Below are positions 21,307 through 27,683 of a stretch of 33,168 nucleotides of DNA, one piece after another. Each line of letters begins with the position of its first letter. The stretch's first letter is position 1. The position numbers and the translations under genes are program-made. The DNA is taken from the NCBI GenBank assembly GCA_031412115.1, contig JANOCJ010000110.1, forward strand, positions 1-33,168, in the 5' to 3' direction. The notes under the pieces were generated by a model that was not told where the DNA came from, made no database searches, and saw only the letters and a list, made by a program, of their open reading frames with translations. This DNA comes from Flavobacteriales bacterium (GTDB taxonomy: Bacteria > Bacteroidota > Bacteroidia > CAMBQF01).

Positions 21307-21795
21307 ATGAAACACCTTTTACTCTTTATATTCACGCTATTTACCCTAAGCACCAGCGCCCAAACACCTTCTGTTATAAGGCTTCTTGAGCTACTAAGAG
21401 ATAGCGATATAAATATCAGTGCCTATGCTGATTCGCTTGGGTATACAGAACATACTTCTACGCCTCAAATTGGCAATATGTATGAGTATGCTGGCGAGAC
21501 TTATACAAAGAAAGACACGTCTAACAAAAGTTCCATAGTGTATTTATCGGGGCATCATTATGCCATGAATCAGTGGCCACTAATGGTTTCTATTTCCTAT
21601 TATACTTCTTCTAAAACCGAATTTGATACACTGGTTGATGAAATTAAAGCACTTGGCGCTAAAGAGTTTTTTTACAAAGATGGCGACCCGTACTACCACT
21701 TGTATAATTATTTTGATATGAAGATTTCAACCTACATAAATACTACCGGCAGGGGGGCAAAGTATACCATTAGCTTTAATGGTAATTATTGGTAG
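21307..21795 (+). CDS. Hypothetical secreted protein, paralog 1
   Basis: Signal peptide MKHLLLF..SAQ; homologous to 21832..22338. Confidence 0.8.
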   Translation: MKHLLLFIFTLFTLSTSAQTPSVIRLLELLRDSDINISAYADSLGYTEHTSTPQIGNMYEYAGETYTKKDTSNKSSIVYLSGHHYAMNQWPLMVSISYYTSSKTEFDTLVDEIKALGAKEFFYKDGDPYYHLYNYFDMKISTYINTTGRGAKYTISFNGNYW

Positions 21796-21831: not shown

Positions 21832-22338
21832 ATGAAACACCTTTTACTCGTTATAGCATCTGTCCTAACACTCTCAGCCCAAGCCCAAACTAAGCCGCCT
21901 ACAATGGCTAAGTTGATTAAGCTATACACCGATACCAATACAGCAGCCATTACTGATTATGCCCACCAATTGGGCTTTAAAGGCGAGGCATTTGGTATAA
22001 ACCATGTAGGCAATACGTATGATTATATGGTGTATACCTTTGCATTAAAAGACACTGCCATCAAGCAACATACCTATTTGAGTTATACCTGGGGGCAACA
22101 TGGTATTTACATTCCGTATAGCTTAACCGCTATATCCTACGGCACCAATTCGCAAGCGGAGTTTGATGCATTGGTTGCAGAAATTAGGGCCAAGGGCGCA
22201 ACGATGGAAGATTACGGAAAATCGCTGCCGGGCAACTATTATTTCAGGTACAAAAATGTAACCATAAGTGCCTGTACAAATCTTGCAAATGCAAGCGGTG
22301 CAAAATATACTATCACTATTGGTGGTAGGGGCCAGTAA
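21832..22338 (+). CDS. Hypothetical secreted protein, paralog 2
   Basis: Shares GN.Y.Y, ISY.T.S..EFD.LV.EI.A.GA and GAKYTI blocks with paralog 1. Confidence 0.8.
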   Translation: MKHLLLVIASVLTLSAQAQTKPPTMAKLIKLYTDTNTAAITDYAHQLGFKGEAFGINHVGNTYDYMVYTFALKDTAIKQHTYLSYTWGQHGIYIPYSLTAISYGTNSQAEFDALVAEIRAKGATMEDYGKSLPGNYYFRYKNVTISACTNLANASGAKYTITIGGRGQ

Positions 22339-23036: not shown

Positions 23037-23081
23037 TTAATGTTGAAACATACATTAACCGGATATGTATTTGTAAATTTG
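23037..23081 (+). promoter_or_regulatory. Palindromic operator-like site plus -7 box
   Basis: TTAATGT-N8-ACATTAA (23037-23058) and TAAATTTG (23074-23081) ahead of GTG 23088. Confidence 0.45.
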
Positions 23082-23087
23082 AGGTAA

Positions 23088-23477
23088 GTGAGGCAATTTA
23101 CTGTTATATTATTTTTAATGGCGGTGCTATTTACCGCTACACCTTTGCAGCAACTGTTTAAGCTGCCTGTATTGGTGCAGCACTATTATGAGCATAAGCA
23201 AATTGATAAAAATATTGGGGTAATTGCGTTTTTAAAACTGCATTATTTTGAGGAGGAAGATGGGGCTGATGCTGATGATAAGCGCGACCAACAGCTTCCA
23301 TTTAAATCAGTAGCCGATTTTATATCGCCTACAACTACAAACGCCAACCCCACTGCCCATACCGAGATTGTTATAAAGCCTGAAATAACAGGCAAACCGG
23401 TGCAAAACCCTGTAAATAAAACACTAATTTCATCGCAGTTCCTGTCTGCCATTTGGCAACCCCCCAAAGCTGTTTAA
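23088..23477 (+). CDS. His-motif leader-type protein ending IWQPPK (putative arrest peptide)
   Basis: Hydrophobic N-terminus, KLP.L.QHY.EH, FLKLHY, LPFK, an unstructured linker and C-terminal IWQPPKAV. Confidence 0.75.
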   Translation: MRQFTVILFLMAVLFTATPLQQLFKLPVLVQHYYEHKQIDKNIGVIAFLKLHYFEEEDGADADDKRDQQLPFKSVADFISPTTTNANPTAHTEIVIKPEITGKPVQNPVNKTLISSQFLSAIWQPPKAV

Positions 23478-23537
23478 TTATACCATTTTTGCACGCCTTG
23501 CATGCAGTAATTTTTTATCATTAAACACTTTTTAGCT

Positions 23538-24029
23538 ATGAACGGAACACACCTTCATTTGCTGCTCAACCATTTTCCTATTGTAGGAACGTTGATAGCA
23601 GCCGCCCTTATGGCATGGGCAGTATTTAAAAACGATGCCCGATTGAAAAACATTACCGCCATAATGGTAATTATATTGGCCGTAATATCATTTATTGTTG
23701 ACCAAACCGGCGAAACCGCCGAAGAGGTTGTTGAAAAGCTGCCCGGCATTAGCAAAGCAGCCCTTGAAGCACATGAACATGCTGCAGGCCCGGCCAATTT
23801 AGTACACATGCTGGCAGGCTTGTTTTGCATAGGCTTTTTAGTGGTTGAACGCCGCAAATTGCCTGCCGCCAAAAATGTTTTTATTGCTTGCTTTGCCATT
23901 ACAGTTGTAGCGTTTGGCCTTATGGCACGCGCGGGCTATTACGGTGGTAAAATTCGCCATACGGAAGTTGATGGCGCGACGCAACTAGTACCAGCCAATG
24001 CAGGCAGCCAACAGGGCGACGACGACTAA
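23538..24029 (+). CDS. DUF2231-like membrane protein with conserved histidines
   Basis: HLHL..NHFPI, TGE.AEE, HEHAA and GG.IRH.E motifs; about 4 transmembrane segments. Confidence 0.7.
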   Translation: MNGTHLHLLLNHFPIVGTLIAAALMAWAVFKNDARLKNITAIMVIILAVISFIVDQTGETAEEVVEKLPGISKAALEAHEHAAGPANLVHMLAGLFCIGFLVVERRKLPAAKNVFIACFAITVVAFGLMARAGYYGGKIRHTEVDGATQLVPANAGSQQGDDD

Positions 24030-24053: not shown

Positions 24054-24743
24054 ATGACAACACCCAACGAGAAACACTTTAATAGCCCGCAAACAGTTAC
24101 TGATATTGTACTGGGCATGTCTGACGGCCTTACGGTACCCTTTGCCTTGTCGGCGGGGCTTACCAGCGCCCTTGGCGATAACCACCTGATAACAACTGCC
24201 GGCATTGCCGAAATTGTTGCAGGTTGCATTGCTATGGGCCTTGGTGGATACCTGGCAGGTCGCACAGAGGCTGAGCATTATGAAAGTGAACTGAAACGCG
24301 AGCATTTTGAAGTGGATAATTTTCCGGAGAAAGAAGCGCAAGAGATAAAAGACATATTGGCTGATTACAACATTAGCGAGAACATACAACAGCTTTTTGT
24401 TGACGATTTATCGAAAGACAAAGACAAGTATGTTGACTTTATGATGAAATATGAGCTTGGGCTTGAAAAACCTGCTAAAAACGCTGCTTTAAAAAGCGGT
24501 TTTTTTATTGGTGCTGCTTACGTTGTAGGCGGCTTTGTGCCCTTAGCCAGTTACTTTTTTACCGACACGCCTTACCAGGGCTTGTTGTATAGCTGCATTA
24601 TTACATCAATAGTGCTATTTGTGTTTGGTTTTATAAAAAGCAAAATTATTGGGCAAAACCCCATAGTAGGGGCATTTAGGGTGCTTGTAGTAAGCTCCAT
24701 TGCTGCCGGCGCAGCGTTTTTTATTGCCAAACTTATATCTTAA
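24054..24743 (+). CDS. VIT1/CCC1 family iron/manganese transporter
   Basis: DIVLGMSDGLTVPFAL.AGL, AEI.AG.IAMGLGGYLA and FMM.YELGLE.P motifs. Confidence 0.93.
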   Translation: MTTPNEKHFNSPQTVTDIVLGMSDGLTVPFALSAGLTSALGDNHLITTAGIAEIVAGCIAMGLGGYLAGRTEAEHYESELKREHFEVDNFPEKEAQEIKDILADYNISENIQQLFVDDLSKDKDKYVDFMMKYELGLEKPAKNAALKSGFFIGAAYVVGGFVPLASYFFTDTPYQGLLYSCIITSIVLFVFGFIKSKIIGQNPIVGAFRVLVVSSIAAGAAFFIAKLIS

Positions 24744-24755
24744 TTAAAACACAAA

Positions 24756-25250
24756 ATGAAACTAAAAAATAATAAAGTAAGAATTCGCTTGGTTACACTG
24801 GCTACTATTTGCGGCTTTGTAACGTTGATGATAGTAGCCCAAAGCTGCGAAAAGGGTGGTGAAAACGAAACCAAAATATCGCAACACAACGAAACGGAAA
24901 GCCACAACAATGGCCAAAACTGCATGAACTGCCACAAAAGCGGTGGCCAAGGCGAAGGATATTTTAATGCTGCAGGTTCGGTGTATGATAGTTTGCAAAC
25001 TGCCCCTAGCGCCAATGGTACAATAAAGCTATACACCGGGCCCGATGGTACCGGAACGCTTAAATATACTATTGAGGTAGATGGCAAAGGCAACTTTTAT
25101 ACCACCGCGGGTATTGATTTTGGCAGCGGCGGTTTATACCCTTCTATTGTTGGCACATCGGGCCAGCAAAAGTTTATGAGCAGTGCTACCATTACCGGCG
25201 CTTGCAACAGTTGCCACAACAATACCGAAGATAAAATTTGGGTTAATTAA
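24756..25250 (+). CDS. Diheme c-type cytochrome lipoprotein
   Basis: Lipobox-like AQSC; two CxxCH motifs (CMNCH and CNSCH); SHN.G before the first. Confidence 0.75.
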   Translation: MKLKNNKVRIRLVTLATICGFVTLMIVAQSCEKGGENETKISQHNETESHNNGQNCMNCHKSGGQGEGYFNAAGSVYDSLQTAPSANGTIKLYTGPDGTGTLKYTIEVDGKGNFYTTAGIDFGSGGLYPSIVGTSGQQKFMSSATITGACNSCHNNTEDKIWVN

Positions 25251-25319: not shown

Positions 25320-27683
25320 CTATTTTCCTAAATATACTAAACGCATTGTTTGGCGTTGCTTTCCGGTGGCTACGGTAAGTGAATAAATACCGGCATCAAG
25401 CCCACTCATATCTACCGGCGTTTGTATTTGCCCGCGGCCTGCAAGGTTAAAGCTGCGCACTATGCGGCAGGTCATATCAAGCACCTGCACAGTATACGTA
25501 GTTTGCATTGGCGACGATATTTGCAAGTTAAAATTCTCGTCAGATGGGTTGGGCCATACCTTTACCCCCATGCTGGCAAGGCTTTCGCTAATGCCCGTAG
25601 CCGGAACTTTGTAGCAAGTGCCACCAATTTTAGTAATGGTGCGCTCGTAGTTTTCGTTTACTATATCGGTAATGCTTTCTATGCAAATTACGGTGTCGGT
25701 AATGTCAGTAAAATAAATGCGGCACAATGGGGTAGGGGTAGTGTATTTATCAATTAACAACCCTTGGTATGATATACCTATAACCTGTTGACCGCCCGGT
25801 GCATACTCAGGGTTTATTGGGTAATCCATAGGGTTTACCAAATTTTGCACGCCCAATATATTTAAGCCATGCATGGTAAACTGGTAAGCGTTTACTTTAT
25901 GGCTGGGGTTTTTAATGGCAACATCTACATAGTTTTGGGCAATGTTTACGGCCTCTATTGATAGGGTAACCGTATCTTCAAAATTTACATAGTTAATAGG
26001 AAAGTTGCATTCGTTGCCATTGGTGGGGTTGCCAAGCAATGCGCATTTATTATCAAGCGCAGCATCAAACACGGTAATACTGCCGTTTCCGCTCAAATCT
26101 AAACAAGGCAAAACAGGTACCGATGTGTTGAGCATATCATGTACATACTTTTGCGCGTCTATACTTTCGCGTAGGCTGTTGCCGTCAATATCGCCCCGTA
26201 TGGCAGTGCCATTGCAGGTGCCGTTGCAATCGCTTTCCGATGTACCAAAAGGCACGCCCATACAATCAACAAACTGCGGGCAGTTGTTATCAATAACAAA
26301 TGATGGTATACCATTTTGGTCGCGGTTTAGGCGGATGCAAACTTGTGCCTGGTTGTTTTCAAACGTTCTTTCTACGCGGCCCAGCGCATCGGGGCTTTGG
26401 TCCCAGTTTACGCGCACCACCATAGTGTATTTACCGGTATCTACATCAGTTATATCAATCCACTGGCACATAAGGCCTGCATCATATATATCGCCACAGC
26501 CTGCGGTAATGCCCATATTTTCGCAACCGTATTGGCCAACACCTCCGCCGCTGCATTCTAAATCTAACACACAAAATCCGTTTTTAAAACCAACGGGTAT
26601 TGAGTTGCCTTGCATATCAAACAATAAGTATTGGGCATAGCCTACATAGTGCCAATGCTGATGGCAGGGGTCAAAAACAAACTGGGTGCCCGCCTGCGGG
26701 GTACCAATGTAATAATCCATCTCGCCAATATTTTTAATATGGGTAGTAAAGCGAATAATATCGCGCAGGCCATAGCCGGTTACGCAGCCTTCTTCTACAT
26801 AACAATTATCTGTAACTATCTGGTCAAGGTCAAGCGATCCTAAAATAGCACCTTGGTCAACCATTAAATCGGGCGCAAAGGGGCACAAAGGGTCGCCAAA
26901 GGCAATGCATGGCCCCGCCACAGTTGCCAGCGGGTTGTAGTTGCAGCTATTGGGGTTCATGCAACCAACAACCGGCCCTACATATTGTAGCGCCCAGTTA
27001 ATGCCGCTGCTGCCGCAGTTGCCTGCATCGTCGCCAATGCGTATATAATACGTTTGGGCAGAATCTAAGTAAGCCGTAACAACAGCCTGTGTGCCGCAGC
27101 CACCGCCATCATCATCATAAAAAACAGTTCCCAATTGGGCATCATTCCAGGTAAGTCCATCGCACTCGCTATATACCCAAACTTTAGTGTCGCAGGTGTT
27201 GGTGCTGCACGTAGTTATCAGGTAAGTGCCAATACTATCGGGGGTAAAAGCGTACCAGGTATTAGCAGTGGGGGCAGTATAGTTGCCCAAGCCAACAGGT
27301 ATTGCGCTGTTGCATGAGTAGCCCGGGGGGCAGTTAAAGTAAGCCGATTCGGTATTAGTAAACTGGCCGCCGGTAGCCACTACCTGCCCGCCAAACGTTA
27401 CTGTGTATGAGCCATTGCCATAGTTGCAGCAAATACCATCGCCGTAGCTATCGTTTATGGTAAAACGCAGGCAAACATTGCTGGGCGCGCATACTGTGCC
27501 ACCATTAGCATTACCTGTAGCGTATTGCACATTGGTTTGGGCGTTGCTCAACGTCCACGATGTTTCGTTAGGATAACTATCGGGTACAATGGTTACTACA
27601 ACCTGTGTTTGTCCGTTGGGGCACTGCGCGTATGCATTAGCCGAAAATGAAATAACAGCTAATAAAAGTAAAAGTCTTTTCAT
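25320..27683 (-). CDS. Lysyl oxidase family protein with T9SS C-terminal sorting domain
   Basis: RFTT..KNIG, CHQHWH, FKNGFC and GC.DIY....CQWIDITDV motifs; signal peptide; C-terminal VWPNPS...L.AGIY.L.V...RLV. Confidence 0.9.
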   Translation of the reverse strand: MKRLLLLLAVISFSANAYAQCPNGQTQVVVTIVPDSYPNETSWTLSNAQTNVQYATGNANGGTVCAPSNVCLRFTINDSYGDGICCNYGNGSYTVTFGGQVVATGGQFTNTESAYFNCPPGYSCNSAIPVGLGNYTAPTANTWYAFTPDSIGTYLITTCSTNTCDTKVWVYSECDGLTWNDAQLGTVFYDDDGGGCGTQAVVTAYLDSAQTYYIRIGDDAGNCGSSGINWALQYVGPVVGCMNPNSCNYNPLATVAGPCIAFGDPLCPFAPDLMVDQGAILGSLDLDQIVTDNCYVEEGCVTGYGLRDIIRFTTHIKNIGEMDYYIGTPQAGTQFVFDPCHQHWHYVGYAQYLLFDMQGNSIPVGFKNGFCVLDLECSGGGVGQYGCENMGITAGCGDIYDAGLMCQWIDITDVDTGKYTMVVRVNWDQSPDALGRVERTFENNQAQVCIRLNRDQNGIPSFVIDNNCPQFVDCMGVPFGTSESDCNGTCNGTAIRGDIDGNSLRESIDAQKYVHDMLNTSVPVLPCLDLSGNGSITVFDAALDNKCALLGNPTNGNECNFPINYVNFEDTVTLSIEAVNIAQNYVDVAIKNPSHKVNAYQFTMHGLNILGVQNLVNPMDYPINPEYAPGGQQVIGISYQGLLIDKYTTPTPLCRIYFTDITDTVICIESITDIVNENYERTITKIGGTCYKVPATGISESLASMGVKVWPNPSDENFNLQISSPMQTTYTVQVLDMTCRIVRSFNLAGRGQIQTPVDMSGLDAGIYSLTVATGKQRQTMRLVYLGK

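Follow-up and report, generated by a model that had tools for sequence, protein, structure and literature searches.

A family of small exported-type proteins with a C-terminal Pro-Pro module as candidate stalling sensors ahead of metal exporters in Bacteroidota

In a 33,168-nt stretch of contig JANOCJ010000110.1 from a Flavobacteriales bacterium (assembly GCA_031412115.1; this whole stretch is referred to as the window), a small open reading frame (ORF), here called the leader, stands directly ahead of genes for a DUF2231-like membrane protein, a VIT1-family protein and a secreted protein with two CxxCH motifs. Sequence comparison places the leader in a large Bacteroidota-wide protein family without name or database model, and the end of its gene forms a helix with the initiation region of the next gene, which recurs in the family and is locus-specific by permutation, position and gene-pair controls. 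By analogy with CutF and SecM, we lean slightly towards the view that the leader is a cis-acting stalling sensor. Its logic would appear to be that of CutF, CruR and SecM, from which the leader differs in its peptide family, its putative ligands, its candidate arrest motif and the kind of initiation region that follows it. An initial annotation made from the letters alone had proposed a metal-sensing arrest leader at this place, and every coordinate that it gave for the ORF, the His motifs, the Pro-Pro codons and both helix arms matches the sequence; its interpretation is supported in part.

Helix between the leader's end and the next gene

RNAfold of positions 23440-23560 returned exactly the hairpin that had been postulated over positions -18 to -7 of ATG 23538, with one bulged C and inner stems, at a minimum free energy (MFE) of -22.1 kcal/mol. 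Compared to 200 dinucleotide shuffles of the same region (-14.6 +/- 2.6 kcal/mol) this corresponds to z = -2.87, and 1 of the 200 folded equally well. When the footprint of a stalled ribosome was imposed on the modelled fold, the unpaired probability of positions -18 to +4 in the window rose from 0.22 to 0.62.

Homologous loci were collected by a combination of pattern search and tblastn, for which one genome per species was scanned. Among the resulting 286 leader relatives, 80 loci were kept, and all of them carry Bacteroidota-type record titles (Chitinophagaceae, Sphingobacteriaceae, Flavobacteriales, Cytophagales, Bacteroidia). Three of the 80 end before any downstream gene; in the other loci an ORF follows on the same strand (77/77), and the downstream gene encodes an ACR_tran protein in 72/77 loci. 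After refinement of the starts, the gap between leader and next gene had a median of 92 nt in the 77 folded loci, which comprise the window and 76 homologous loci (L036 was excluded); it amounted to 60-114 nt in 61/77, 60 nt being the value in the window, and to 186-370 nt in 13/77.

Folding from the leader end through the next start in the 76 homologous loci showed that a long-range helix recurs. Its 5' arm consists of the last one or two codons, the stop codon and a few further nucleotides, and its 3' arm lies just before or across the next start, as seen for the arms of L002 (GCTGCTAATATTTT / AAAATATTAGCA), L017 (TCCTGCTG / CAGCAGGA), L026 (TTTTCTTAATTA / TAATTAAGAAAA) and L065 (AATTTGCTGATCATTTT / AAAATGATTACAGATT). 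A paralogue of the leader on another contig of the same genome (L103:2843-3226, - strand, 22% identical) has a helix as well, formed by AUAGGUUAAUACCAU / AUGGUAU...UUAACCUAU ahead of the AUG (MFE z = -2.66), and its arms are unlike those of the window.

The specificity of this pairing was assessed with register-free tests. Duplexes between the region stop-9 to +15 and the region -30 to +6 of the downstream start reached a mean of -9.1 kcal/mol within the same locus versus -6.3 kcal/mol for 5700 cross-locus pairs; 0 of 5000 permutations attained the observed mean, and the region -66 to -31 gave -6.0 kcal/mol. For 36 further gene pairs that share a strand in these loci the mean was -5.9 kcal/mol, and duplexes of -10 kcal/mol or below were found for 8% of these controls compared to 50% of the leader pairs (Mann-Whitney P 2.8e-5). 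When partners were sought in the stretch that begins 16 nt past the stop and ends 60 nt inside the next gene, the best partner of the 5' arm was centred between -28 and +2 in 50/76 loci, with 18.8 expected (binomial P 5e-14). Even in a register fixed solely by the stop codon and two pairing nucleotides, the flanks paired at a fraction of 0.447 within loci versus 0.404 across loci, a value reached in 51 of 5000 draws.

Imposing the ribosome footprint on all 76 loci raised the mean unpaired probability of positions -18 to +4 from 0.44 to 0.51 (Wilcoxon P 8e-6), and a footprint shifted 24 nt upstream left it unchanged (P 0.70). The region -20 to -1 consists of 46% A. We consider it quite probable that the helix couples initiation of the downstream gene to translation of the leader's end. 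Two other candidate elements of the intergenic region were rejected: an intrinsic terminator, for which runs of at least five T within -14 to -1 were present in 5/76 loci, and an internal promoter for the downstream gene, as an own -7 box was present in 2/76 intergenic regions.

The leader family and its relation to known systems

Neither Pfam nor NCBIfam holds a family model matching the leader of the window. A word-indexed search gave 12 close homologues, and an exhaustive phmmer search with the leader gave 1503 representative clusters at E<=1e-3, of which 409 remain at E<=1e-10. The ESM Atlas clusters that hold the leader are named "hypothetical protein" and have no common Pfam family, and a metagenome scan for close relatives yielded three loci with 41-42% identity.

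In an alignment of 115 sequences, H32, H52, Y53, L70, P71, P125 and P126 are invariant, and T18, K25, P27, H36, D63, D67, F72 and K73 are at least 90% conserved. The His motifs QHYYEH (residues 31-36) and LHY (residues 51-53) as well as the Pro-Pro pair, all pointed out initially for the window sequence, therefore lie on invariant alignment columns and are not chance features of a single ORF. The His motifs could serve as metal ligands. The leader of the window has no cysteine at all, and Cys counts among family members range from 0 to 7.

The export-like character that had been ascribed to the N-terminus is borne out by the family: a K or R precedes the hydrophobic segment in 68 of 71 scored members and a D or E in 0/71, with a median hydropathy of 2.68 over 12 residues of this segment. 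As judged from this basic-then-hydrophobic pattern, the family would be exported via its N-terminal segment. The pattern also settles the start of the ORF, which is placed at 23088 because homologues keep an N-terminal M/V/L-K/R-K/R; ATG 23118 was rejected, since homologues have no Met at this position and retain the basic N-terminus. Cleavage after T-A-T is doubtful because Pro19 directly follows it, and the segment may rather remain as an anchor.

The AlphaFold2 model of the leader has a pLDDT of 84.6 (about 80 over residues 100-129) and a pTM of 0.55, with helices at residues 2-17, 20-23, 26-39, 45-53, 64-67 and 116-122. It found no match in the PDB with Foldseek, and the best hit of a VIA-align comparison to 48,161 chains (Z 3.7) was to unrelated channel helices.

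The most constant part of the family is its C-terminus. All of the 150 top phmmer representatives, a set that was not selected by the C-terminal motif, have a Pro-Pro within the last 15 residues, and 149 of them read [W/F]xPP (WQPP in 122, FQPP in 10, others in 17); the 80/80 found for the motif in the pattern scan is biased, the motif being one of the two search patterns. The module is kept even in six of the 150 proteins whose C-terminal halves do not align with the query. The paralogue mentioned above, with the motifs IPHIIHHYYDH and DEHF, extra Cys and His residues and the C-terminus SSIWQPPKIG, illustrates the same: at 22% identity between the two proteins, the sensor part can diverge widely while the C-terminal module is kept.

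The module also stands at a fixed distance from the other motifs. In 90 of 161 proteins all three motif patterns could be located by strict regular expression; among these, three residues follow the Pro-Pro in 73/90, the distance from H32 to Pro-Pro is 88-95 residues in 89/90 (mode 92) and that from LPF to Pro-Pro is 52-57 residues in 84/90. The linker between the motifs is thus fixed in length and not conserved in sequence. At the nucleotide level, the first Pro codon lies 15 nt from the leader stop in 65/76 loci; the CC of the Pro codons is kept and their third base varies, as does that of the Gln codon, and consequently the constraint acts on the peptide.

Small proteins of the DUF2946 type (PF11162), the family of CruR and CutF, were considered as relatives. 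PF11162 did not match the protein of the window at E<=0.1, neither PF11162 at E<=10 nor any CzcI or DUF2946 model matched any of 115 family members, and a PF11162 search of the genome of the window (G000) gave 0 matches. The leader family further has no conserved CXXC, and W/F-Q instead of R-A precedes its Pro-Pro. It shares with DUF2946 a spacing between metal motif and Pro-Pro that is conserved to a few residues. In DUF2946 the spacing from CXXC to RAPP is conserved and the Pro-Pro lies three residues from the end (PMC9426467). That spacing is 45 residues, unlike the distances in the leader family. By ESM features, the nearest named clusters are "DUF2946 / CzcI PF28244" (0.92, 104 shared features) and DUF6769 (0.90), which serves as a lead only. 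Overall, by sequence criteria the leader family appears analogous to DUF2946 and not detectably homologous to it, in line with the term "analogue" of CruR and CutF used in the initial annotation.

Weak PF11162 matches did occur in 8 of 101 genomes of the phylum, to a different set of proteins ending in RAPP or RGPP. Several of these (L082-L085 and L089) are small proteins with His/Cys-rich centres and RAPP/RGPP two to three residues before the stop, except for L089 with its RAPP about 19 residues before the stop. An alignment of the leader family with five of the RAPP/RGPP-ending proteins by hhalign gave a probability of 1.5%, where the small profile limits sensitivity. RAPP/RGPP upstream ORFs beside copper genes have been reported to be lacking in Bacteroidota (Fujiwara et al., PMC12992588); going by the weak matches, true DUF2946-type leaders seem to be present also in certain lineages that GTDB assigns to the phylum.

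The closest functional parallel is CutF of Rhodobacter capsulatus, which has a Sec signal, a CxxxC motif and a C-terminal PPP, and whose stall is prolonged by copper and melts a stem-loop that covers cutO's ribosome-binding site (PMC9973294; bioRxiv 10.1101/2025.02.05.636593). The leader fits the description of CutF-like proteins by Ozturk et al. (2023), with fewer than 150 residues (129), a Pro-Pro within the last 15 (P125-P126) and a same-strand neighbour. Its basic N-terminus, followed by a hydrophobic segment of 12-14 residues that AlphaFold2 models as a helix, may correspond to the signal peptide of that description. Like CutF as described in these sources, the leader would be a small exported-type protein that carries a metal-ligand motif as well as prolines near its C-terminus and is encoded ahead of a gene for metal detoxification, with an intergenic stem-loop masking the next initiation region and periplasmic metal prolonging the stall as the proposed signal. 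In contrast to CutF, the ligands would be His/Asp instead of CxxxC, the motif is WQPP instead of PPP, the masked region is A-rich and has no Shine-Dalgarno sequence, and the mRNA is predicted to be nearly leaderless with a mostly non-AUG start.

The family is not necessarily new. List D of CutF-like proteins in Ozturk et al. contains 19% Bacteroidota entries, including some with ACR_tran neighbours (PMC9973294), and the idea is therefore less novel than the initial annotation implied; the leader family may already lie within list D or its 29 clusters. In the text of that article, the His-only clusters 14 and 17 are described solely as neighbours of HupE/UreJ and not of RND pumps, and no WQPP motif, Bacteroidota helix or leaderless start is named (PMC9973294).

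CruR (Bp2923) of Bordetella pertussis, a PF11162 protein, acts through Rho-dependent termination in a 162-nt GC-rich spacer, and copper relieves its stall (PMC9426467). It shares the signal-peptide-type N-terminus and the position as an upstream ORF before a metal-transport operon, while the leader family is without the CXXC and RAPP described for CruR. CzcI of Cupriavidus metallidurans likewise is a small periplasmic-type protein heading a czc RND operon; it is described as having no C-terminal proline motif, in contrast to the leader family, and presumably acts as a regulator that senses metals (PMC9973294).

SecM, VemP and MifM are force-sensing arrest peptides encoded upstream of secA, secDF2 and yidC2. 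As far as they have been described in the sources considered here, they resemble the leader in their N-terminal export signal, in a C-terminal motif a few codons before the stop and in a stalled ribosome that opens a masking helix; they differ from it in that they monitor export activity and not metals, and their arrest motifs are unrelated. As with such arrest peptides, the intergenic helix of the leader loci covers the initiation region of the next gene and extends into the footprint that a stalled ribosome would have, with column covariation not being significant.

Proposed mechanism and competing explanations

Taken as a stalling sensor, the leader could work as follows. A sigma-A promoter would abut the leader start codon, resulting in a nearly leaderless operon mRNA, and the hydrophobic N-terminus would bring the nascent chain to the Sec translocon. 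Once the ribosome arrives at W-Q-P-P, about 92 residues past H32 and 55 past LPF, the His/Asp motifs would already be periplasmic, with the C-terminal dozen residues residing in the exit tunnel. The slow Pro-Pro peptide bond would then keep a paused ribosome on the 5' arm of the helix; without this pause, the 5' arm would pair with the A-rich stretch from -18 to -7 of the next gene. Opening of the helix would license initiation on the operon for the DUF2231-like, VIT1 and CxxCH proteins, because Bacteroidota ribosomes, which do without Shine-Dalgarno pairing, need an unstructured upstream region. Metal on the exported His/Asp site would lengthen the pause, as copper does for CutF, and exporters would be made at high periplasmic metal. 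Of this scheme, we infer that the leader is exported, that ribosomes pause on it and that it binds metal, and likewise in which direction it regulates and which metal it senses.

According to the toeprint rule, about 15-16 nt separate the first base in the P site from the ribosome's leading edge. A ribosome with P125 and P126 in its P and A sites would reach about position 23475 and cover 10-11 of the 13 nucleotides of the 5' arm; CruR arrests when its two Pro codons occupy these sites (PMC12992588). Following the reasoning of Ozturk et al., about 30 residues occupy the exit tunnel and about 17-20 span SecY (PMC9973294), which would put LPFK, 52-55 residues from the Pro-Pro, at the periplasmic mouth and the Asp/His motifs outside. 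In Bacteroidia, Shine-Dalgarno sequences are ignored by the ribosomes, whose initiation is tuned by the structure of the mRNA and by the nucleotides upstream (PMC6847099, PMC9976891); tuning by mRNA structure was described for Flavobacterium johnsoniae (PMC6847099).

A number of points weigh against such a sensor. Any ribosome terminating at the leader stop would open the helix too, so that pausing would not strictly be required, and the fairly confident AlphaFold2 model would also fit a folded mature protein with a structural WQPP. To our knowledge, no arrest activity has been demonstrated for QPPK, and a full-text literature search for WQPP, WQPPK and IWQPPK gave unrelated matches only. On the RNA side, RNAalifold found no consensus structure on a MAFFT alignment of 61 leader-end-to-start regions, whose 3' arms do not line up in register. 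When a fixed 8-bp helix was assumed for the MAFFT alignment, 69.4% of the cells paired versus 68.8% in column shuffles (164/500 as high), and covariation is not above the shuffles either, the three double-change pairs being fewer than in these. The majority clade just keeps the two arms unchanged, as TGTTAAT (Cys codon plus stop) and ATTAACA, and about one third of the loci pair weakly, with no convincing helix in the region tested. The gain in accessibility under the footprint is modest as well, with 36/76 loci up by at least 0.05, 18 up by at least 0.15 and 6 down. The idea of a stem shared across homologues stands as to its recurrence above controls and falls short as to covariation on the MAFFT alignment.

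The main rival explanation, which we regard as rather unlikely, is that of a mature, anchored or periplasmic metal-binding protein with an accessory or regulatory role in the manner of CzcI or CusF, for which WQPPK would be a structural or interaction motif and the helix a means of ordinary translational coupling or of setting stoichiometry. The confidence of the AlphaFold2 model throughout the chain agrees with this, as do the conserved His/Asp residues resembling a metal site and the proximity to DUF2946/CzcI clusters in language-model features (a lead only); CzcI itself is described as a presumed metal-sensing regulator without a Pro motif (PMC9973294). It is the cis geometry that argues against it: an accessory role needs neither a gene that always directly precedes the next one in the same orientation and within a narrow range of distances, nor a stop codon embedded in the helix. 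The position of [W/F]xPP relative to the stop, moreover, is fixed to the codon despite a linker that has diverged beyond alignment, and this linker keeps its length without keeping its sequence. The two roles, accessory protein and stalling sensor, are not mutually exclusive.

It is less probable still that the leader controls transcription or RNA stability, e.g., through Rho access as for CruR and TnaC or through RNase cleavage, in which case the helix would be a stabiliser or a processing site. CruR with the same overall architecture does use Rho-dependent termination (PMC9426467), intergenic regions are long in 13/77 folded loci, and T's follow the 3' arm in the window. Across the family, however, runs of at least five T between -14 and -1 are confined to the 5/76 loci given above, most intergenic regions are short, and the preference of the 3' arm for the initiation region (50/76 versus 18.8 expected) is what translational masking predicts. 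A chance fold of the AT-rich intergenic DNA, which folds easily and shows no column-wise covariation above shuffles, together with a C-terminal motif devoid of regulatory meaning, is highly improbable in view of the z-score of the window hairpin, the register-free family-wide tests, which are all significant, and the independent matching helix of the paralogue.

For the stalling sensor, a more far-reaching version can be formulated, to which we give somewhat less than an even chance: the leaders would constitute a phylum-wide family that originated independently of DUF2946, with nearly leaderless and mostly non-AUG-initiated ORFs, namely His-based periplasmic sensors with a new [W/F]-Q-P-P arrest module that unmask initiation without Shine-Dalgarno pairing at CusA/CzcA genes and, in the window, at the VIT1 operon. 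As a part of this joint reading, and equally tentative, the divergent sensor domain combined with a fixed arrest module and geometry might represent a modular switch.

Downstream genes, promoter and significance

Among the pumps encoded behind the leaders, three were tested in full and all three matched TIGR00914, i.e., CusA/CzcA heavy-metal RND pumps (1166-1186 bits versus a cut-off of 701); in two of them an OEP outer-membrane-factor domain is fused to the pump. The proteins of about 1450 aa behind most leaders (e.g., L005:5492-9829 and L002:5962-10311) are CusA/CzcA permease and OEP fusions, and forms of about 1050 aa are without OEP. The paralogue of the window leader lies 82 nt upstream of a czcA-like RND gene for 1457 aa, which is 70% identical to the pump of L002; a protein search of the genome had overlooked this paralogue. 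In L036, a T9SS-sorted protein is encoded downstream of the leader instead of a pump.

In the four loci nearest to the window (L002, L003, L004 and L029), a DUF2231-like gene stands between leader and pump. From its gene order, the window is a variant of this arrangement in which the VIT1 gene and the CxxCH protein gene replace the pump. The leader and the three genes after it are separated by gaps of 60, 24 and 12 nt, and the next gene is convergent. The genes are those named in the initial annotation; for its cytochrome, all cytochrome-c Pfam matches stay below the cut-off. As to the metal-linked target postulated there, the family does stand upstream of metal exporters; the operon of DUF2231, VIT1 and cytochrome genes is a local variant, the normal target being a CusA/CzcA RND pump.

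Further observations concern the organisation of individual loci. In L003, from a complete genome (CP096135.1; L003:5938-9767), the RND gene that comes after the leader and a DUF2231-like gene is broken into two ORFs (345 aa and 930 aa), which span model positions 1-336 and 338-1020, suggesting a frameshift or an assembly error. Two family members about 2.4 kb apart on the same strand of one contig (L098 and L102; genome G107, contig C25) suggest tandem leader-plus-target units. Convergent with the operon of the window, positions 25320-27683 on the - strand encode a protein of 787 aa that carries a lysyl-oxidase domain (E 3.1e-30) and, at its C-terminus, a T9SS sorting domain. On the other side, positions 21307-21795 and 21832-22338 hold tandem paralogous small ORFs (162 and 168 aa) that begin almost identically, in the manner of a signal peptide (MKHLLL...), and have motifs in common along their length.

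Table 1. Coordinates of the leader, its parts, the intergenic helix and the following genes in the window
Feature	Position	Strand	Remarks
-7 box TAAATTTG	23074..23081	+	Matches the Bacteroidota sigma-A motif TAnnTTTG; ends 6 nt before the GTG
Leader/sensor ORF	23088..23477	+	GTG start, TAA stop at 23475-23477, 129 aa; ORF confirmed in sequence and homologues
Hydrophobic signal/anchor segment, residues 4-17 (FTVILFLMAVLFTA)	23097..23138	+	Mean Kyte-Doolittle value 2.63; within AlphaFold2 helix 2-17
His motifs H32-x3-H36 (one helix) and H52-Y53 (next helix)	23181..23246	+	AlphaFold2 helices 26-39 and 45-53
Acidic stretch and LPFK motif (D61, D63, D67, Q68, L70, P71, F72, K73)	23268..23306	+	L70 and P71 invariant; D63, D67, F72 and K73 at least 90% conserved
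Candidate arrest sequence LSAIWQPPK, residues 119-127	23442..23468	+	C-terminal conservation; P125-P126 codons CCC CCC at 23460-23465
Helix 5' arm AAAGCTGTTTAAT	23466..23478	+	Codons of K127, A128 and V129, the stop and the nt after it
Inner stem-loops of the intergenic hairpin	23480..23518	+	RNAfold; interior not conserved among homologues
Helix 3' arm ATTAAACACTTT	23520..23531	+	-18 to -7 of ATG 23538
DUF2231-like membrane protein, proposed first regulated gene	23538..24029	+	E 4.5e-6, 27.2 bits (cut-off 26.4)
VIT1-family (Fe/Mn exporter-type) gene	24054..24743	+	PF01988, E 6.7e-66
Secreted protein with two CxxCH motifs (CMNCH, CNSCH), last operon gene	24756..25250	+	All cytochrome-c Pfam matches below cut-off

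A second particularity of these loci is the promoter. The motif TAnnTTTG was found within 120 nt upstream of the leader in 63/74 loci and ends 0-9 nt from the start in 55 of the 63. Among 76 loci examined, 64 bear the motif, and in 48/64 the first in-frame NTG follows 4-7 nt after the G of the box (4 nt in 19, 5 nt in 23, 6 nt in 4 and 7 nt in 2 loci); the leader start codon of the 64 loci is TTG in 31, GTG in 12, ATG in 12 and CTG in 9. In the transcription start map of Flavobacterium psychrophilum, the TAnnTTTG box is situated at -12 to -5 (PMC9723704), and with this spacing the leader ORF would begin at +1 to +3. For the window, this predicts a transcription start at about position 23086, two nucleotides before GTG 23088, and for the family leader mRNAs that are nearly leaderless and mostly initiated at non-AUG codons. 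Such short leaders were reported for 3.7-5.5% of the transcripts in two Bacteroidota (PMC7366714, PMC9723704).

How Bacteroidota regulate the efflux of heavy metals is poorly understood. The family described here should be named and given a model in protein-family databases, as 1503 representative clusters currently carry no annotation, and the promoter lying flush with a mostly non-AUG start is a second oddity that can be tested separately. If the proposed stalling sensor holds true, WQPP would be a new arrest motif for studies on the ribosome tunnel, and the family would show that pausing is used to open an A-rich initiation region without Shine-Dalgarno pairing. Most CusA/CzcA pumps of Bacteroidota would then be under the control of a nascent-chain sensor, instead of or besides transcription factors.

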